Assembly: GCA_034432855.1 (NCBI GenBank)
Contig: DAOUBA010000058.1
Coordinates: 5,483 to 69,482 of the forward strand
Source of the DNA: Anaerolineae bacterium
GTDB lineage: Bacteria; Chloroflexota; Anaerolineae; B4-G1
Direction: 5' to 3'
Length of the DNA: 64,000 nucleotides
The notes beneath the pieces were generated by a model. That model did not search any database and was not told where the DNA came from. It was given only the letters and a program-made list of their open reading frames with translations. The translations under genes and the position numbers were made by a program. Below, piece after piece: positions 2,946 through 64,000 of the stretch. Each line of letters opens with the position of its first letter. Positions within the stretch are counted from its first letter, which is position 1.

Positions 2946-5442
2946 TTTTGAGAGCGAGCGGTAGATAAACCCGAAAGATGTCTTTTACGACATAAAACAT
3001 TTTCGGTGGCGTCTCCGTGCCGTTCGGCGGCGGGGCCGGATCGTAAACCGTCACCGGGAAACTGCCCACCGTGCTCACGTCGGCGGCCCTGATGGTGGCC
3101 CTCAAGCGCGTGCTGCTGACAAAAGTGGTCGGACGGTCGCTGCCGTTCCAGCGCACCACGCTATTGGCCGTAAAGCCGGCGCCGTCCACGGTCAGAGTGA
3201 AATCGGCCGCCTCGTCCACGTCGAAAAAGGACGGGTTAATGCTCAACAACGTGAGCGGGGCCGGGCCGTTGTCCACCAGGATTTTGGACGTAAATGGCGC
3301 AAGGGTCAGGCTGCCGATCACGGTGTTTTGATCCAGGTCCAGATATTGCCGGTCGCCCAGGTTGATGACTATTGCCGTCTTGCTGGCGTTGTAAAATATC
3401 TTGCCGCGCGAGGGCTCGCCCTGAGGTTGGGTAAACCAGTTGGTCTTGGAGTGGGCCTCCAGGCCGCTGAACGCCTTCCAGCCGGAGAACGTGTAGCGCG
3501 TCCAGGAGGGGCCATAGGCGATGTGATTGTTCACGTAGGGGTGAAACAGGTAGTTATAGTCCGAGGACACCCAGTTGCTGAGACTGCGCGAGTATATCGT
3601 CCAGGCCTTGCTGTTCAGCCCAAAGAGGATGTTGTTGGCTACGGTCGCGCGGGTCTCGTCGCCACCCAGGCTGATGTGCGCGGCGTACTCGGTGCCGTAG
3701 GAGGCATTGTACACCGTATTGCCGACGATGGTGCCGGTCGAGCGCTGGTAGTTGATGCCGGTGATTGTCGTGCTGATGACGGTGTTGCCACGCGCCTCCA
3801 CATCACGGGAATAGTGGTCTACGTACAGCCCCATCCCAAAGGCCGCGCGCGAGGGATGACAGCCGTCCACGTTGCCGGGGATGTCCACGATGATGTTGTT
3901 GAGCAATCGGACGTTGTACACTTCGGTCGCCGAGAGGTTGTCGGTGCCGAACGTCCTGACGCCGCCGCAGTCGGCTTTGGAATAGCAGGACTGGGTGATG
4001 AAATTCTTTTCCAGCGTCGTGTCGTGGCCGAACACATCTACGCCGTTGTAGCCGATCCGCTCCAGACGATTGTAGCGCAGCGTGTTGCCATAGCCGGAAT
4101 CGCGTGGGTCATATGTCCTGATCCGAATTCCGTCGCCGTTCTCGGTGCACTCGTCGCTGGTCTGGCCGCAGCCCATGCCGGATTTGCCCAGATTCTGGAT
4201 GAGCGCGATGTTGCGGATGACATTATCCTCGAAGGTGGATTCGGCGAAATAGCCGGTGATGCCGAAATGGTTGGCCCCATCAATGAGGTTGTTCGTGAAC
4301 GTCATATGATGTCCACCGCGCAACCCCTTGCGACCGTCGGAGGGCCGCTCCAGCCAACTGCTCAGCCGGACGCCGGCGGAATTCACGTCGCGGATGGTGA
4401 CGTTGCGCACCGTGATGTGATGATAGATATCTCGGCTCATCCCGCCCGGCGTGCCGATGCCGTGATTGAACCAGTTCTTGATCTCGAGATTGTCAATGAT
4501 GATATAGGCGGTTTCCGAGCCGTCGCTGAGCATGATGCCCCCATCCCTGATCCGGTTGGGGTCGGGGTCGGTCGCGAACACCACCGACCCTTCGATGTTG
4601 GCCGGCGTGCCCGAGTCCGAATACAGGTAGACCCGCCGCGTTCCGGCGTCATAGTACCACTCGCCGTCCCGGTCCAGCGTGGCCAGATGGTTGTTGATGA
4701 AATACCCCCAGCCGATACAATCGCCCCAACTGGAGATCAGGCAGGACAATCCTTTGTTCAGCGTCAGCGTGGTGCCGCTGGAGCCGGTGACCTGGCGTTC
4801 GAGCATGGACCAGCGGATGTTCTTGATGTGCACGATGGCGCCGGTCCAGTTTATGCCGGACGGCAGTTCGTTGTCTACAATCTGGTTGCTGCCGGCGCTG
4901 TGGCTGTCCACGAACGAATAGCCGCCGTTGGCCGTGCCCAGGTTGGGCCAGCGGCCCAGCGTCAAGCGTTGACCATTGCGGAACAACTGGTTGATGCCCA
5001 GCGGGAACGCGCTCTCCGGCACGCTGGCCCAGTAGATTTTGCCCGAGTAGACGGCCCAGCCGGTGATCGGCAGCGAACCGGAGAGGATCGGTTTATTGGC
5101 GCATCCCGCCGGGTACGAGCCGAAAGTGATCGGGGCGTCTGCCGTGCCCGCCCATTTGATGACCAGTTGCTCGGCCCGCCAGGTGTCGCCGCACTTGAAC
5201 AGCACCCGGTCGCCGGGCTGGAGGTTCAGCGAGTTGATCTTGGCAATGGTCTTGAACGGCGTTGACTCGGACCGGCCGTTGTTGCTATCGCTGCCGCCCG
5301 AACTGGAGACGTAATAGGTCGTCCCGCCAGCCCGCACAGGCCGGACCGGCATGATGGCGGCGAGCAGGGCCAGCGAGATGACAAACCGGAGGGGAAATCC
5401 CAAAATAGAAAAAACGGTCTTGTTCATAGCCACCTCACGCAT
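2935..5442 (-). CDS. Secreted right-handed parallel beta-helix (pectate-lyase-fold) protein, 835 aa, with a C-terminal Ig/IPT-like domain and a ...FRVYLPLALKNGS tail
   Basis: Signal peptide (true start possibly MNKTVFSIL.. at 5427); N-cap GTTYYVSSSGGSDSNNGRSESTPFKTIAKI..LQPGDRVLF typical of beta-helix carbohydrate-active proteins; repeated NN[IL]I / G-rich beta-helix rungs; the C-terminal region VTVYDPAPPP...YVVKDIFRVYLPLALKNGS. Confidence 0.6.
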   Translation of the reverse strand: MREVAMNKTVFSILGFPLRFVISLALLAAIMPVRPVRAGGTTYYVSSSGGSDSNNGRSESTPFKTIAKINSLNLQPGDRVLFKCGDTWRAEQLVIKWAGTADAPITFGSYPAGCANKPILSGSLPITGWAVYSGKIYWASVPESAFPLGINQLFRNGQRLTLGRWPNLGTANGGYSFVDSHSAGSNQIVDNELPSGINWTGAIVHIKNIRWSMLERQVTGSSGTTLTLNKGLSCLISSWGDCIGWGYFINNHLATLDRDGEWYYDAGTRRVYLYSDSGTPANIEGSVVFATDPDPNRIRDGGIMLSDGSETAYIIIDNLEIKNWFNHGIGTPGGMSRDIYHHITVRNVTIRDVNSAGVRLSSWLERPSDGRKGLRGGHHMTFTNNLIDGANHFGITGYFAESTFEDNVIRNIALIQNLGKSGMGCGQTSDECTENGDGIRIRTYDPRDSGYGNTLRYNRLERIGYNGVDVFGHDTTLEKNFITQSCYSKADCGGVRTFGTDNLSATEVYNVRLLNNIIVDIPGNVDGCHPSRAAFGMGLYVDHYSRDVEARGNTVISTTITGINYQRSTGTIVGNTVYNASYGTEYAAHISLGGDETRATVANNILFGLNSKAWTIYSRSLSNWVSSDYNYLFHPYVNNHIAYGPSWTRYTFSGWKAFSGLEAHSKTNWFTQPQGEPSRGKIFYNASKTAIVINLGDRQYLDLDQNTVIGSLTLAPFTSKILVDNGPAPLTLLSINPSFFDVDEAADFTLTVDGAGFTANSVVRWNGSDRPTTFVSSTRLRATIRAADVSTVGSFPVTVYDPAPPPNGTETPPKMFYVVKDIFRVYLPLALKNGS

Positions 5443-16347: not shown

Positions 16348-17793
16348 ATGAAAGTCAAGATGATTCTGCCGGCGCTGACCGAGGCCAAAAGCCCGTATTG
16401 GCGCCCCATCAAGTACTCGCTCTTCCCGCCGTTGGGACTGGCGACGCTGGCGGGGTATCTCTCCGCGGACGACGAGGTCGTAATCCAGGATGAGCACGTC
16501 GAGACGCTGGGCCTGGACGACGAGCCGGACCTGGTTGCGATTGAGGTGTACATCACCTCGGCGCGACGCGCCTACGAACTGGCCGACCACTACCGGGCGC
16601 GGGGGGCGCACGTGGCGCTGGGCGGCCTGCACGTGACCGCACTGCCCGAGGAAGCCACCCGCCACGCCGATACGATCTTTCTCGGCCCCGGCGAGGACAC
16701 CTGGCCCGCCTTCCTGGCCGATTTGCGGGCGGGACGGCCGGGGCGGGTCTACCGCTCAACCGTGCGCTGCCTGGCGGGGATGCCACGCCCGCGCCGCGAT
16801 CTCATCAAGCGCCACCTCTATCTTGCGCCCAATTCGCTCGTCGTCTCGCGCGGCTGCCCGCACCACTGCGATTTCTGCTACAAGGATGCCTTCTTCGCGG
16901 GCGGCAAGTCGTTCTACACCCAGCCGCTGGACGAGGCGCTGGCGGAGATCGAATCGCTGCCGGGCCGCCACCTGTTTTTCCTCGATGATAACATCTTGGG
17001 CGACGCGCGTTTCGCAGCGGCTCTATTCGACGCGATGCGTGGGATGGGGCGGGTATGGCAGGCAGCGGGAACGGTGCAGGCTGTTCTCCAACCCGGCCTC
17101 CTGGAAAAGGCCGCGGCGAGCGGCCTGCGCAGCCTGTTCGTCGGCTTCGAGACGCTTCATCCGGGCAATCTGAAGGCGCAGCACAAGATGCATAATCTCA
17201 ACCGTGATTACCGCGTCGCCATCCGCCGTCTGCACGATCACGGGGTCATGGTCAACGCGAGTTTCGTCTTTGGGATGGACGAGGACAACGAGACGGTGTT
17301 CGACCGCACAGTGGAATGGGCGCTCGAGCAGGGCATCGAAACGGCGACGTTCCACATCCTCACCCCCTACCCCGGCACGGCGCTCTTTGCGAGGATGGAG
17401 GCCGAGGGGCGTATCACGACCTACGACTGGGACCTCTATGACACGCGCCACGTGGTCTTCCGTCCGGCCAGGATGTCGGCAGAGGCGCTGGAAGCAGGCT
17501 ACTGGCGCGCCTACGAGCAGTTCTACCGCTGGGGATCCATCTTCCGCGCAGCCTGGGTGCAAGGTACGTGGCGCGAGCGGCTACGCCATCTGGCCTATGC
17601 GGGGGGCTGGAAGAAATTCGAGCCGCTATGGGACGTGATCATCCGCGCCGGTCAGGTCTCGCGGTTTCTGCCGCTGTTGGAGAGGGTGCTGGATGGGGCA
17701 AGTTTGCAAGTAGGCAAGTTTGCAAGTATGCAAGCATGCAAGTATGCAGGTGGGCAGAGGTATGCAGGGTGGCAAACGGGGGTGCGTTTATGA
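16348..17793 (+). CDS. B12-binding radical SAM protein (class B rSAM with a DUF4070-type C-terminal region)
   Basis: N-terminal cobalamin-binding domain (..VVIQDEHVETLGLDDEPDLVAIEVYITSARRAYELA..); CxxxCxxC cluster SRGCPHHCDFCYKD; DUF4070-like C-terminus. RBS aggaggtgag. The last roughly 30 codons read through the 8-bp tandem repeats. Confidence 0.85.
   Translation: MKVKMILPALTEAKSPYWRPIKYSLFPPLGLATLAGYLSADDEVVIQDEHVETLGLDDEPDLVAIEVYITSARRAYELADHYRARGAHVALGGLHVTALPEEATRHADTIFLGPGEDTWPAFLADLRAGRPGRVYRSTVRCLAGMPRPRRDLIKRHLYLAPNSLVVSRGCPHHCDFCYKDAFFAGGKSFYTQPLDEALAEIESLPGRHLFFLDDNILGDARFAAALFDAMRGMGRVWQAAGTVQAVLQPGLLEKAAASGLRSLFVGFETLHPGNLKAQHKMHNLNRDYRVAIRRLHDHGVMVNASFVFGMDEDNETVFDRTVEWALEQGIETATFHILTPYPGTALFARMEAEGRITTYDWDLYDTRHVVFRPARMSAEALEAGYWRAYEQFYRWGSIFRAAWVQGTWRERLRHLAYAGGWKKFEPLWDVIIRAGQVSRFLPLLERVLDGASLQVGKFASMQACKYAGGQRYAGWQTGVRL
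17695..17775. repeat. Tandem 8-bp repeat array, GCAAGTNT x about 9-10, at the extreme 3' end of the rSAM ORF
   Basis: gcaagttt gcaagtag gcaagttt gcaagtat gcaagcat gcaagtat gcaggtgg ... read directly. The period is 8, not a multiple of 3. Confidence 0.6.
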
Positions 17794-59013: not shown

Positions 59014-59171
59014 CCTGACGATTGACGACCGACCACTGTGGTTGTGCTGCCTTCGCTCAGGGTCCGCCCGGGATGCTCACCCTCCCGCAGATCCAGGAAT
59101 CGGGAGATACAGCCCGCCTTGGGCGCTTGCTCGCGGGGTTAGTGCGGGAGGGTGAGCGGTTTCCCTCGGTG

Positions 59172-60612: not shown

Positions 60613-62358
60613 TCAAGGGCAAGAGTCTCGACAGATTTGATAGTAGAGCGTGAACGTGTGATTGGCTCCTTCACTGGTTGCCTCCAGGGCCGTGCCGCTC
60701 CAGTCGTCGCGGGGGTGATGACGCGTTATGCGTCCAAGGCTGACCGGTGGGCCGACCAGGTCCGGCATCCCATAACATTCTATGGAAAGGCTCAAGACCA
60801 TCTCCTCTGTTGTCAAGTGGAGGCTTCGATGCTGGCGGTCGCCCAGTTTCCAGACCGAGGAGGCCTCCCTGTCCAGATACTGGTCATCCACAGGCAACCG
60901 CGCGGACGGCACGCCTTCCACCTCTGCATAACAGTAGACCCCGTGCCAGTCCCGATTGGTGTACAGCCGTTCGCCCAGGCGGATTTCCACGTCTACCGGC
61001 AGTCCGACCGCCACTCCCCCAGGCTCCAGGGAGCCCCGGCAGCCCAGTATGTCGCCCGGACTATCGGGACAGCCGTCCTCATTGTCCATGAACCCGTCGT
61101 TGTCAGAGTCGGTGCAGGCCGCCGGGGCGATAGAGCACCAAAGCGGCGAAAGCCCGCCGTTGATGATGGCGATGCCCTGTCCAGCCGGCGAGGAACAGCC
61201 CCCCCAGATGGCCGGGCCCGCTTCCTGGGGACAGCGATCGTCGGCATCCGTCAGCCCGTCGTCATCAGAGTCGTTGCAGAAGGGCGGCAGTTCTCCCCCT
61301 CCCAAGCGGGCCAGCGCGCAAAACAGGCCATCCGCCCAGTCGGGCACAGGGAATTGTGGGTCATTTCCTGCAACCGGGCAGCCGTCGTCTTCACCCCCGG
61401 GCCAGAGGGGACAATCGTCCTGGTCGTCCACGTTCCCGTCGCCGTCCTGATCGTCGGCGTCCACCAGCGGACAGCCCGCATTTTCCTCCGGCCCGGCCAC
61501 GTCGCCGCACTGGTCCTGGTCATTGAGCACACCGTCGTTGTCCCGGTCGTCGCTCTGGCCGGGGCATCCCAGGCTGCCGCCGGCACCGGGTTGATCGTCG
61601 CACTGGTCCTGGTCGTCGGGCACGCTGTCGCCGTCCTGGTCGCCTGCCCCCGGGTCGGGAGAACCCTGGGATTCGAGTGGGCCGGCCTGGTCGGGGGAGG
61701 CGTCCACATTGTTCGGCAGCCCGTCTCCATCTCCGTCGGCAGGCTGCGGACACCCCTGATGTTCACCCAGGCCAAACTGGTCGGGACAGCGGTCCTGGGA
61801 ATCGGCGATGCCATCCCCGTCCCTGTCGGTTGCGCTTGCCGTTGGACAGCCCTGGGCGGGGATGAGACCTGCTTCGTCGGGGCAGGCATCCTGTTCATCC
61901 GGGACCCCATCTCCATCTCGATCGGGGGCCTGGAGGGCCTGGACGCGGATGGAGGTGTTGGCCGAGCCGCCGGGGCGGGTGTAGGCCCAGGCGGTTAGCG
62001 TGTGGTCGCCGGGCGTGCGGGAGACCCAGAACCAGACGGCCTGCGCGCTGGTAGACATGGCCGGCATATCGCCGATCAGTTGCCCATCGGCCCAGAGTTG
62101 CAATCGGACGAGAGGCTCGTCGGCAGAGGTTGCCTGGACATGTACCGGCACTGCGGCGCCGAGTCCGATTTGCGCGCCGTGTGCCGGGCTCAGGAAGGAG
62201 ACAATAGGTGGGGTGGCTTCCCGGCGTGCGATCGCTTTGGCGCCGGCCCGTTGCAGGGCCAGTAACCCCGACGCCGCTATAAGCAGAAACACGCAAAGGC
62301 ATGCTGCCGTGATCCATACGAGGATCGTCAGTACGCGAAGGTTTTTAGTTCTACTCAT
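60613..62358 (-). CDS. Secreted/anchored protein with about 8 thrombospondin type-3 (TSP3) calcium-binding repeats
   Basis: N-terminal TM/signal; repeated D-x-D-x-D-G-x-x-D-x-x-D modules: DRDGDGVPDEQDACPD, DRDGDGIADSQDRCPD, DGDGDGLPNNVD, DQDGDSVPDDQDQCDD, DDRDNDGVLNDQDQCGD, DDQDGDGNVDDQDDCP, DSDDDGLTDADDRCP, DSDNDGFMDNEDGCPD. Confidence 0.75.
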   Translation of the reverse strand: MSRTKNLRVLTILVWITAACLCVFLLIAASGLLALQRAGAKAIARREATPPIVSFLSPAHGAQIGLGAAVPVHVQATSADEPLVRLQLWADGQLIGDMPAMSTSAQAVWFWVSRTPGDHTLTAWAYTRPGGSANTSIRVQALQAPDRDGDGVPDEQDACPDEAGLIPAQGCPTASATDRDGDGIADSQDRCPDQFGLGEHQGCPQPADGDGDGLPNNVDASPDQAGPLESQGSPDPGAGDQDGDSVPDDQDQCDDQPGAGGSLGCPGQSDDRDNDGVLNDQDQCGDVAGPEENAGCPLVDADDQDGDGNVDDQDDCPLWPGGEDDGCPVAGNDPQFPVPDWADGLFCALARLGGGELPPFCNDSDDDGLTDADDRCPQEAGPAIWGGCSSPAGQGIAIINGGLSPLWCSIAPAACTDSDNDGFMDNEDGCPDSPGDILGCRGSLEPGGVAVGLPVDVEIRLGERLYTNRDWHGVYCYAEVEGVPSARLPVDDQYLDREASSVWKLGDRQHRSLHLTTEEMVLSLSIECYGMPDLVGPPVSLGRITRHHPRDDWSGTALEATSEGANHTFTLYYQICRDSCP

Positions 62359-62517
62359 TTCTGTCCTCCTACAAGTTTATTATTTTCCGGGCGAGGTGCA
62401 GAATCCCATTCTTCCCTGCTTCCCTGATTCCCTTCCTGGCCTTTCCCAGAAGCGGAGGTCTTTCCCCTCCTCCTGCCGGGTGGCGGCGCAGCCGCCGGGG
62501 TGGGGCGAGGATGTATA

Positions 62518-62597
62518 CCCCCTTTCCCCACCCCCATCCCCCTCCCCTTTCCCCCGCTGCGGGGGAAAGGGGAGGGGGTAGGGGAGGGGTTAGGGGG
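62518..62597. repeat. Long G/C-tract palindrome; the core is a perfect 19-bp inverted repeat CCCCCTCCCCTTTCCCCCG-ctg-CGGGGGAAAGGGGAGGGGG (62538-62578) with imperfect extension
   Basis: Read directly; immediately 3' of the stop of the minus-strand gene 62598..62864; six runs of four or more G on one strand. Confidence 0.7.
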
Positions 62598-62864
62598 TCA
62601 ATAACCCCTCATCACCAGCGGCAGGTAGACCAGGTACTGTGCCGTGCCGCACCAGAAGCCGGCGCAGAGTTCATAATTCCCTTGCGAGACCGTGCCTACG
62701 ATCGGCTGGCCGATGGTGCCGTCCAGGGAGATGCCCCCGGCCTCCGTGTGCCCGCCCCCGCCGCCGAGGACGGACCAGGGGATGGCTGTTGTGCCCTGCG
62801 CCAACGCTGTGCCGGCCAGCATAAGGAGAGCCAGCGCCGTTGCGAAAAGTGCCATCCGTTTCAC
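62598..62864 (-). CDS. Small secreted protein (88 aa) ending in the ...YLVYLPLVMRGY tail motif
   Basis: Signal peptide MKRMALFATALALLMLAGTALA; mature part GTTAIPWSVLGGGGGHTEAGGISLDGTIGQPIVGTVSQGNYELCAGFWCGTAQYLVYLPLVMRGY. Confidence 0.5.
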   Translation of the reverse strand: MKRMALFATALALLMLAGTALAQGTTAIPWSVLGGGGGHTEAGGISLDGTIGQPIVGTVSQGNYELCAGFWCGTAQYLVYLPLVMRGY

Positions 62865-62879
62865 GGTTCACCTCCGGCG

Positions 62880-64000
62880 CTATGGGCAGGTGTAGGCGTT
62901 GTAACTGCCGTCGTACACCTGAAAGCAGGTGCGCGTGCCGCCGGTGCGGTTGAGGCCGCCGTCCAGTTGGCTGACGGCAAGGTAGAGGACTCCGCTGTTC
63001 TCTCTCACTGCTGCGGTGCTGCCTCTGAAGCGGCAGGAGTCGGCCCGCACTGTACCATATGACGTGTAGAGGCCGTAATTGGATGTGCCGTTCTCCCCCA
63101 GCGCGAAGGCGCCCTGAACGGTCAGGTCGCCGACGTTGTGCATCCCGGCTGCCAGGTTGCCGCCCTGGGCGATGAAGGAGCCGCTGTAGACCCGGGCCAC
63201 AGAAGTGCCCACTTCGTTTCTCAGCCCCTGGTTATTGGTGGTTCCTCCCCACGCTCGCGCCGTCACGTCGTGGGCCTCCAGGACGGCGCCGTTGGTATTG
63301 TGAATCGCCCAGGCGTAGGTTTCCCCCGCCGCATTGGCAGTGAAAGAGCCGCCCCGCAGGATGGCGTTTCCATCTGCCTTGTTGTTGCAGAAGGCAGTCG
63401 CTGAATATGTTGCATTTTCTCCCTGCGCCGTCACTCCCTCGGCTTCCAGGTGGGCATCAGAGTTGTAGATGCCGTAGGCAGAATGTCCCCCGCTGCCCAG
63501 GAAGAAGCCACCCTGTAGGAGAACGGTGGGATAGGTGTCGCTCTCCAGGCCGACGTTGGTGGTGCTGGCACCTGTGCCGCTGGCGCGCACATCTGCTGCA
63601 CCCAAGAAGGTGCCCAAGCCGCCGTACACCCGGATGCCATAGGCGTTGGTGCCTCCGGTGCCGGTGAACGTCCCGCCGTGCAGTGTGACTTCCGGTCCAC
63701 CATCCGTATCGGCTTCAACGCGCAGGCCGACGTTGTCGGTGCCGGTCTTGCCTGCAAAGGCCGTGACATTCTCCAGCGTAATTTGGGTGTCGCCCGTTAG
63801 GTAGATAGCGATGTTGGAGGTGCCGGTCCCTCCGGCCTCCACGTACACATTGGACACCCGCACGTTGGTGACGTCCGCGCCGTATATTCCATAGTTCGTC
63901 GCGCCGGTGCCGACGTTGGAGATGCTCAGGTCGCGCACGGTGGTATCACTGGCCAGTTCCAGTGTCCGCCCGCCGTCAAACGAAGGCGCCGCCTGGATGA
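62880..64000 (-). CDS. Secreted repetitive beta-helix-like protein (partial; N-terminus lies beyond the window end)
   Basis: About 20-residue Gly/Thr/Asn-rich rungs (..TNYGIYGADVTNVRVSNVYVEAGGTGTSNIAIYL.. ; ..NAYGIRVYGGLGTF.. ; ..SAYGIYNSDAHLEA..); Cys-containing C-terminus ..CFQVYDGSYNAYTCP. Confidence 0.55.
   Translation of the reverse strand, partial: IQAAPSFDGGRTLELASDTTVRDLSISNVGTGATNYGIYGADVTNVRVSNVYVEAGGTGTSNIAIYLTGDTQITLENVTAFAGKTGTDNVGLRVEADTDGGPEVTLHGGTFTGTGGTNAYGIRVYGGLGTFLGAADVRASGTGASTTNVGLESDTYPTVLLQGGFFLGSGGHSAYGIYNSDAHLEAEGVTAQGENATYSATAFCNNKADGNAILRGGSFTANAAGETYAWAIHNTNGAVLEAHDVTARAWGGTTNNQGLRNEVGTSVARVYSGSFIAQGGNLAAGMHNVGDLTVQGAFALGENGTSNYGLYTSYGTVRADSCRFRGSTAAVRENSGVLYLAVSQLDGGLNRTGGTRTCFQVYDGSYNAYTCP

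Follow-up and report, generated by a model that had tools for sequence, protein, structure and literature searches.

A C-tract/G-tract palindrome of the intrastrand-triplex type directly after a small secreted-protein gene of an Anaerolineae bacterium

One of the questions raised by the DNA of an Anaerolineae bacterium (Chloroflexota) regards why a palindrome built of C and G tracts stands directly behind the stop codon of a gene for a small secreted protein. The element lies at positions 62518-62597 of the stretch that was analyzed, 64,000 nt of contig DAOUBA010000058.1 (assembly GCA_034432855.1), which is referred to here as the window. We call the whole element HP-B; L-numbers denote fetched loci and contigs, L001 being the source contig (80 kb). 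By its sequence, HP-B is a double-length, two-sided class II intrastrand-triplex motif of the BoxC/PIT/TM type in which both sides share one 19-bp hairpin; palindromic C-tract/G-tract repeats of the same family occur in Anaerolineae/Chloroflexota contigs. The reading that best fits these data, to which we give a probability of about one half, is that such a family repeat has been co-opted as an intercistronic or 3'-end RNA hairpin, acting as a stability barrier or a leaky attenuator.

On the plus strand HP-B (62518-62597) reads C5 TTT C4 A C5 AT C5 T C4 TTT C5 G-CTG-C G5 AAA G4 A G5 TA G4 A G4 TTA G5. A first-pass annotation of this DNA had described a perfect 19-bp palindrome with a CTG loop, extended imperfectly to about 80 bp, that would form an extremely stable hairpin. 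The perfect stem is indeed 19 bp long (62538-62556 with 62560-62578), and with mismatches allowed the arms reach 39 nt each with a complementarity of 82%; what the annotation missed is that the outer arms are mirror repeats. By our reading of the sequence these outer arms pair only via their G and C runs, with Watson-Crick pairing at 1/4 of the A/T spacer positions. The free-energy calculation agrees with the predicted stability, as the RNA fold of the minus strand (116 nt) has -89.5 kcal/mol and z = -7.5, with 0/200 shuffles as good, and the DNA fold has -44.1 kcal/mol and z = -5.9. When a 90-nt fold was slid along both strands of the whole window, HP-B gave -75.5 kcal/mol against a mean of -28.3 (standard deviation 7.5) and a next best value of -53. 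HP-B is by far the strongest fold in the window and its sole long G/C-tract palindrome. The Rfam search of the window returned nothing at gathering score, only sub-threshold microRNA-precursor models, i.e., generic long hairpins. An assembler fold-back was considered as the origin of HP-B and was ruled out, because the same sequence occurs in two independent assemblies, the NCBI metagenome-assembled genome (MAG) GCA_964605935.1 (80-kb contig) and the Logan assembly of SRR11582151, and because the element lies mid-contig between non-inverted flanks.

The order of the domains is the same on both strands, namely a pyrimidine arm, a loop, a purine arm, a 2-nt loop and a mirror-image G arm, and each outer G arm is a perfect mirror of the inner purine arm. 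Such an order is that of the intrastrand triplex motif of class II, with its pyrimidine, purine and reverse-Hoogsteen domains, which was named BoxC, later PIT and later TM (Holder et al., 2015, PMC4666352) and has the E. coli form CCCTCTCCC-TGT-GGGAGAGGG-CCG-GGGTGAGGG (PMC4666352). In HP-B, 18 nt of C/T (62538-62555) are Watson-Crick partners of 18 nt of G/A (62561-62578) around a central GCTGC, and a reverse-Hoogsteen third domain (R2) fits the purine domain (R1) on both strands. On the minus strand R1 is GGGGGAAAGGGGAGGGGG, the loop is AT and R2 is GGGGGTGGGGAAAGGGGG, giving 18/18 triplets of the types G.G:C, A.A:T and T.A:T; on the plus strand R1 lies at 62561-62577, the loop is (G)TA and R2 is GGGGAGGGGTTAGGGGG at 62581-62597, giving 17/17 allowed triplets. 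Before the third domain, ITxF permits a loop of 1-6 nt and Hoyne one of 0-10 nt. When the 64 kb were scanned for this domain order, exactly one class II motif per strand was found, both at HP-B, and none with at least 9 triplets in 20 shuffled windows.

In E. coli K-12 the motif has 23 copies, always intergenic, and it was found in more than 260 genomes including cyanobacteria (Hoyne et al., 2000; PMC4666352). Nuclear magnetic resonance (NMR) showed that the E. coli motif forms in vitro a triplex and not a G-quadruplex (G4), and a duplex after its complement is added; a triplex in vivo was not detected (PMC4666352). The E. coli copies are associated with locally variable regions and have no known function (PMC4666352), and PIT/BoxC elements had neither terminator nor promoter activity (Hoyne and Maher, 2002, cited in PMC4666352). 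Purine-motif triplexes are reported to be excluded from RNA (PMC4666352).

Another question is whether HP-B has relatives. An unbiased palindrome scan of all fetched DNA returned a second element, HP-A, on the source contig (L001 6419-6490), just outside the window. It follows directly the TAG stop codon of a 93-aa gene (L001 6137-6418) and reads CCCTCACCCACCCCCAACCCCCTCCCTCTCCCA-GGTT-TGGGAGAGGGAGGGGGCGAAGGGGGAGGGTGAGGG, then CAGGAGGTGCCC, followed by the ATG of the next gene, 12 nt from the end of the element; its fold has -74.2 kcal/mol and z = -7.6. The 93-aa gene and the 88-aa gene in front of HP-B, 3.8 kb apart on the source contig, are paralogues that share a signal peptide, a glycine run, GQ, Cys-x-Gly-aromatic-Trp-Cys-Gly and a C-terminal YLPLV(L/M)R. 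The 93-aa family has 635 members, some of them source-labelled Anaerolineae, Chloroflexia or Chloroflexota.

HP-A stands right after the stop codon in 6/6 orthologous locus groups (L026, L027/28, L165-170, L171/172, L173/174 and L175-177), with protein identity across these loci down to 69%. The element of L171/L172 is the exact reverse complement of HP-A in L001 (72/72), next to a gene with 81% DNA identity and 71% identity at third codon positions. Read from the sequences, such an identity with inversion indicates strong constraint or homogenization, plus a flip of the whole element. Thus the position of HP-A, and in one pair its exact sequence, is kept across the Anaerolineae-type lineages examined. 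The variants of HP-A were compared arm by arm and pairwise, the MAFFT alignment of such low-complexity sequence being too poor for a covariance model. By our reading of the sequences the run lengths vary between clades but agree on both arms within each element, which argues that pairing is maintained; within-element self-complementarity is mostly high (0.68-1.00). HP-A and most relatives pass the strict triplex rule with 12-18 triplets, and HP-A and other relatives keep the mirror/triplex layout with run lengths from 3 to 6. In all but one locus the intercistronic gaps that hold HP-A measure 84-137 nt and are mostly occupied by the hairpin. Little space for a promoter is left there, so that expression of the downstream genes probably relies on read-through, and a strong terminator is disfavoured. 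The L027 copy (604-710), compared with L026 (1191-1261), has in its loop an additional nested hairpin, CCCTCCCCCA-aca-TGGGGGAGGG.

Further relatives were sought in metagenomes with the pattern CCCCNCCCCN{1,4}CCCCCGNNNCGGGGGN{1,4}GGGGNGGGG, in which N positions matched C or G, and because of these positions the listing was mostly polyC/polyG junk. After filtering, three real relatives remained among the matches listed (L071, L145 and L158). L071 and L145 are the same element in two samples, with a core, CCCCTCCCCCTTCCCCCCG-CWG-CGGGGGGAAGGGGGAGGGG, that is nearly the core of HP-B and an overall identity of 0.79, and it lies in frame within an ArsP_1 permease gene. The L158 element has 27-bp perfect arms and lies in frame within a gene for an NDH-2-type oxidoreductase; its Pfam match spans about 20 more residues on the protein side than on the profile side, and solved NDH-2 structures align from just past the insert. 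These in-frame copies add Pro-rich and then Gly-rich peptides. No direct repeat flanking the element was found in the window or at L158. More family copies occupy other intergenic sites of the conserved cluster that holds HP-A (L173 3445 and 8143, L171 8358). All real C/G-tract palindromes in Anaerolineae-type loci have the C arm first. The first-pass annotation had named a generic repeat family, abundantly scattered with no relation to gene ends, as the case that would speak against a local role. HP-B does belong to a repeat family, but the copies found are for the most part still associated with intergenic gene ends, and the 80-kb source contig holds only two full copies, HP-A and HP-B, and one partial module, both full copies following the paralogous small genes.

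Other searches added no relatives. The 19-mer arm had 21 single, non-palindromic matches in unrelated phyla among 185,579 species genomes (the source genome not among them), which we read as chance-level. The same tract pattern had five matches in viral contigs, all homopolymer-dominated, and BLAST of HP-B against plasmids gave no match, probably owing to the low-complexity filter. The peptides that HP-B would encode, which are short and low-complexity queries, had no match at E ≤ 1 and none in the representative library.

Several observations touch the form and recovery of such repeats. At L173 8075-8300 a family hairpin is nested in a ~210-bp palindrome with AT-richer outer arms (ACCACAGAGGACACGAAGGACAC... 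and ...GTGTCCTTCGTGGT), and the composite looks like a miniature inverted-repeat transposable element. A third C-arm-first inverted repeat of the window (59075-59157) lies 14 nt past the stop of a 469-aa gene and has a 15-bp stem, GCTCACCCTCCCGCA with TGCGGGAGGGTGAGC, and a 53-nt loop; its arms resemble family motifs (CTCACCCTCCC), and folding the entire gap gave no significant result (z = -1.6). The contig of L177 ends inside or just after the hairpin (10349), as does that of L024 (63 nt past the small gene). Long G/C-tract palindromes may fragment metagenome assemblies and hence be under-represented in MAGs. The loci L040-L164 comprise more than 100 public contigs with polyC-polyG junctions, many at contig ends, which look like sequencing or assembly artefacts.

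Turning to the genes around HP-B, all of them are on the minus strand (Table 1). In the direction of transcription the order is a 598-aa beta-helix-like protein, the 88-aa secreted protein, HP-B, a small 6-bp hairpin, a purine-rich spacer, a Shine-Dalgarno (SD) sequence and the TSP3/Big_7 gene. The annotation had placed the palindrome directly 3' of the small secreted-protein gene and upstream of the TSP3 gene, and the distances agree: the TGA of the 88-aa gene occupies 62600-62598, the final base of the outer right arm (62597) adjoins it with 0 nt between them, and the ATG of the TSP3 gene (62358) follows 160 nt past HP-B. The tail past the stem is UAUACAUCCUCG, with three U among its first 8 bases, so the lack of a U-tract was also correctly noted. 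Pfam and NCBIfam searches gave no match for the 88-aa protein. The module at 62478-62510, compared with the 5' module of the L173 element at 3445-3480, a non-orthologous site, matches at ~31/33 bases by reading. A flipped form of the small hairpin at 62482-62496, GCCGCC-TGC-GGCGGC, is carried by the L165-170 copies, and the family is modular. A coding explanation was also considered, and the plus-strand open reading frame at 62511-63062, which overlaps the conserved minus-strand gene, was treated as spurious. Beyond the TGA of the 88-aa gene, its frame contains no further stop for 80 codons (62355-62597, minus strand) and ends at a TGA that overlaps the TSP3-gene ATG (ATGA); the chance expectation of such a frame is estimated at ~0.1, and the sister element HP-A does not have the same feature.

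Table 1. Features of HP-B and its flanks (window coordinates).
Feature	Position	Strand	Remarks
HP-B, whole element	62518-62597	.	palindromic, two-sided class II intrastrand-triplex-type C-tract/G-tract repeat, by sequence
Outer left arm	62518-62535	-	minus-strand reading GGGGGTGGGGAAAGGGGG; mirrors minus-strand R1 after loop AT; 18/18 allowed triplets
Inner left arm CCCCCTCCCCTTTCCCCC(G)	62538-62556	.	pyrimidine (Y) domain on plus strand; complement is minus-strand purine domain R1
Apical loop CTG (CAG on transcribed minus strand)	62557-62559	.	
Inner right arm (C)GGGGGAAAGGGGAGGGGG	62560-62578	.	purine domain R1 of plus strand
Outer right arm GGGGAGGGGTTAGGGGG	62581-62597	+	R1 mirror image; reverse-Hoogsteen R2 of plus strand, preceded by loop (G)TA of 2-3 nt; 17/17 allowed triplets
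88-aa secreted small-protein gene	62598-62864	-	signal peptide, G5, GQ, CAGFWCG, C-terminal YLPLVMRGY; TGA directly before HP-B
Second family module CCTCGCCCCACCCC-GGCGGC TGC GCCGCC-ACCC	62478-62510	-	contains 6-bp hairpin 62482-62496
TSP3 gene, 581 aa	60613-62358	-	TSP3 repeat and Big_7 domains; SD GGAGGA at 62364-62369

The small secreted proteins form a family of 87-110 aa with a signal peptide, a glycine run, GQ, Cys-x-Gly-aromatic-Trp-Cys-Gly and an extreme C-terminal (V/I)YLPL(V/I)(L/M)R(N/G)x, and a 1178-aa protein of L071 ends in the same type of tail, LPLIIRGW. The common tail suggests a C-terminal sorting signal specific to the lineage. The conserved cluster that holds HP-A (L001 654-12036, syntenic in L165, L166 and L173) has triplex-type hairpins in several intergenic gaps. 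It encodes a Y_Y_Y/PAS histidine kinase, two response regulators (one GerE-type, one single-domain) and a ~330-aa protein, together with a small secreted protein, beta-helix proteins like Pel9A, another small protein and CARDB or TSP3/Ig-like proteins; the cluster may be a surface-fibre or sheath operon. Elsewhere in the window, an intergenic tandem repeat lies at 17698-17748 (8-nt unit GCAAGTAT, 6.4 copies, 83% matches).

Other lineages were also compared at the same gene end. Homologues of the 88-aa gene in several of them are followed by unrelated strong hairpins (z = -2.6 to -5.6; L033, L034, L032/35 and L037/38): a 13-14 bp stem with a T/A run behind it in L033 and L034, two hairpins plus a T-tract in L032 and L035, and a 22-bp stem in L037 and L038. 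No hairpin was found after the 88-aa homologues of L026-30, L031, L036 and L039.

What, then, might HP-B do at this site? From its architecture, position and family, together with the conservation of HP-A, we infer an effect on RNA stability or attenuation. HP-B would be transcribed as a hairpin of about -79 kcal/mol inside the minus-strand gene cluster, and this RNA hairpin would be its working form. It would act at the 3' end or between the cistrons as a barrier to 3' exonucleases, and also as a leaky brake on read-through. In this way the small gene, whose product is presumably abundant, would keep a higher message level than the large genes downstream. REP sequences and the puf intercistronic hairpin act so in other bacteria (see below). 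The extreme fold, together with one class II motif per strand, is counted in support of it, and the unrelated hairpins after homologous small genes are counted as functional replacement. The triplex and G4 potentials would then be DNA-level properties of the repeat family, unneeded for the local role.

Several points weigh against an RNA hairpin with such a role. HP-B itself was seen in one organism only, and the contig of its closest homologue (L024, 76% identity) ends 63 nt past the stop; in the P0003 clade no hairpin follows the 87-aa gene. The E. coli elements lack terminator and promoter activity, as mentioned above. An RNA hairpin also leaves the well-kept mirror (third-strand) arm unexplained, as purine-motif triplexes are reported not to form in RNA, and the in-frame copies inside coding genes look like selfish spread. 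For the mirror arm there would be two options: the family may need structure in single-stranded DNA in order to spread or be maintained, or else the triplex itself may have a role.

The main rival is a reading that we consider possible although rather unlikely: HP-B would be a selfish or neutral repeat of the BoxC/PIT type without local function, whose spread, persistence or regeneration by G-tract template switching depends on DNA hairpin or triplex properties, with at most local genome instability as its effect. The class II layout on both strands fits such an element, as do the relatives at non-orthologous intergenic sites and in the permease and oxidoreductase genes, the flip of the whole HP-A between L001 and L171, and the E. 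coli copies, which mark variable regions. C-arm-first hairpins are, moreover, multi-copy in GC-rich contigs of viral collections. One of these, L256 (an IMG/VR contig, 67% GC), has between 1661 and 7031 four paired copies, i.e., eight hairpins of CCCTCTCCC-loop-GGGAGAGGG with CCCTCACCC/GGGTGAGGG flanks within 10 kb, so that BoxC-like composite repeats are densely clustered on this contig, which is labelled viral. Yet a repeat without local function does not sit easily with HP-A standing after the stop in every orthologous locus examined and keeping 72/72 bases where adjacent third positions keep 71%, nor with the few copies on the source contig and their place after paralogous small genes, nor with the unrelated hairpins that hold the same place in other lineages.

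A role of the triplex itself, which we hold to be doubtful, would mean that the mirror architecture is selected at a fixed site immediately behind stop codons. An intrastrand triplex of 18 triplets, formed by the non-template single strand or the replication template, would then modulate read-through or polarity in this operon. If true, this would be the first function for BoxC/PIT motifs, for which none has been found since the 1990s, and the 72/72 inversion of HP-A would mark a flip-flop element whose strands are functionally equivalent.

It is improbable that HP-B is a full Rho-independent terminator that ends the message of the small gene while a separate promoter serves the TSP3 gene. HP-B is a GC-rich hairpin at a gene end, the stem is followed by a 7-nt A/U-rich UAUACAU, and the 160 nt to the next ATG offer promoter room; but a U-tract is missing after the stem, and a promoter scan of the gap between HP-B and the TSP3 gene gave no promoter-like site. 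The consensus terminator scan of an 8-kb region did not call HP-B, whereas it found a hairpin with a T-run at 56699-56678 (four sites in all, no excess over the shuffles with their mean of 3.6). The G-rich 3' arm should give a very stable RNA:DNA hybrid and would thereby oppose release, HP-A so close to the next ATG is probably read through, and the E. coli PIT elements did not terminate (PMC4666352). Orientation also speaks against it. Among the matches listed in viral contigs, the C-arm-first 9-bp hairpin CCCTCTCCC/GGGAGAGGG occurs on contigs of 61.5% GC, has a T tail in 3% and is often multi-copy, whereas the G-arm-first form occurs on contigs of 47.5% GC with A/T tracts in 33-39%, as with ordinary terminators; each orientation gave at least 120 matches, so the counts give no ratio. 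As the two sets differ in GC, T tails and copy number, the C-arm-first elements form a class other than canonical terminators, and the version with a U-tract has the orientation opposite to that of HP-B. From the role of terminator or stabiliser offered by the first-pass annotation, a gene-end hairpin is thus plausible on comparative data (the position of HP-A in 6/6 groups and the unrelated hairpins of other lineages), whilst full termination is disfavoured.

Ranked next, and improbable as well, is a DNA-level cis site (protein-binding, cruciform or an invertible segment) that regulates the cluster linked to the two-component system. Family elements do recur after regulator genes and small genes in L173, L171 and L001, HP-A is inverted exactly between two lineages, and by our reading the loop and bulges flip independently when L026 is compared with L001 and L171. 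But no binding protein is known, inverting a near-perfect palindrome alters almost no sequence, and copies in unrelated coding genes (L071 and L158) are unlike a cluster-specific operator.

The last reading takes HP-B as a G4 or i-motif that serves as a switch or roadblock, in DNA or RNA, for the flanking genes. The sequence potential that the annotation had seen is real: HP-B has six G-runs of at least four in the right arm on the plus strand, and also six in the left arm on the minus strand, so that the 3' arm of each strand carries them. Its absolute G4Hunter score of ~3.0 is the maximum of the window (next best 2.28), and canonical putative quadruplex sequences, with at least four G-runs of at least three and loops of 1-7 nt, match at 62561-62589 (plus) and 62518-62542 (minus strand). 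As a working form the G4 does not hold up in silico, as the G4-aware ViennaRNA fold of the whole HP-B is a hairpin of -78.7 kcal/mol, whereas the G arm taken by itself reaches only about half of this stability as a G4 (-38.7 to -40.8 kcal/mol), and the G4 is thus not competitive with other folds of the same strand. A full complement precedes each G arm, and the C arm is transcribed first on either strand, so co-transcriptional pairing is expected to win over the G4; the E. coli motif is a triplex by NMR and a duplex with its complement (PMC4666352), and HP-A and relatives hold the mirror/triplex layout despite run lengths of 3-6. A G4 or i-motif switch is therefore very unlikely, and membership in a hairpin/triplex repeat family can account better for a sequence with such a conspicuous likeness to a G4.

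Compared with known systems, HP-B resembles Rho-independent terminators in placing a GC-rich stem-loop at a gene's 3' end and differs from them in being C-arm-first and without a U-tract, the U-tract form of the same 9-bp hairpin in viral contigs being G-arm-first. Rickettsia palindromic elements (RPE) are palindromic repeats inserted in frame in protein genes. They are mentioned in PMC1779305 and PMC2229807. The relatives of HP-B inside the ArsP permease gene (L071/L145) and the NDH-2 gene (L158) recall them, whereas HP-B is intergenic, the sequences are unrelated, and the elements of the HP-B family are much shorter and built of G/C tracts. A closer likeness is to stable intercistronic hairpins. 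Repetitive extragenic palindromic (REP) sequences and bacterial interspersed mosaic elements, which act as mRNA stabilisers (e.g., at malE-malF), and the intercistronic "decay terminator" hairpin of Rhodobacter puf shield the message upstream of them, so that the genes of one operon are expressed unequally, and in the REP case the hairpin is supplied by a genome-wide repeat family. HP-B differs from these elements in its homopyrimidine/homopurine arms with mirror symmetry. A REP is a 20-40 bp imperfect palindrome with a GTAG or CGTC tag at one end (PMC3733652); HP-B has no terminal GTAG/CGTC and its arms are not themselves palindromic, which sets it apart from REP/REPIN palindromes.

The system that HP-B resembles most in architecture is BoxC/PIT/TM of E. 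coli. In both, a loop separates a 5' C/T arm from its complementary G/A arm, and a mirror G-rich arm follows after a second, short loop, with only G.G:C, A.A:T and T.A:T triplets; both are C-arm-first, mostly intergenic and without a U-tract, and E. coli too has inverted motif pairs. HP-A even contains the exact E. coli 9-mers CCCTCTCCC, GGGAGAGGG and GGGTGAGGG, whereas HP-B, with its run pattern C5 T C4 TTT C5, departs from the strict BoxC consensus CCCTCTCCC-loop-GGGAGAGGG-loop-GGGTGAGGG. HP-B has 17-18 triplets against 9 in E. coli, which exceeds the ITxF search range of 6-15, and its two strand-specific motifs share one central hairpin and so form a single 80-bp palindrome. Its host phylum, Chloroflexota, is not mentioned in PMC4666352. 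BoxC/PIT/TM motifs are abundant in many bacteria and have no accepted function, and in E. coli they show no positional rule and lie at variable, unstable loci, whereas HP-B is placed directly after a stop codon and the position of HP-A is conserved. With HP-A and HP-B, the possible co-option of such a motif becomes testable in a concrete setting, as a hairpin next to the stop codon within a putative surface-protein operon.

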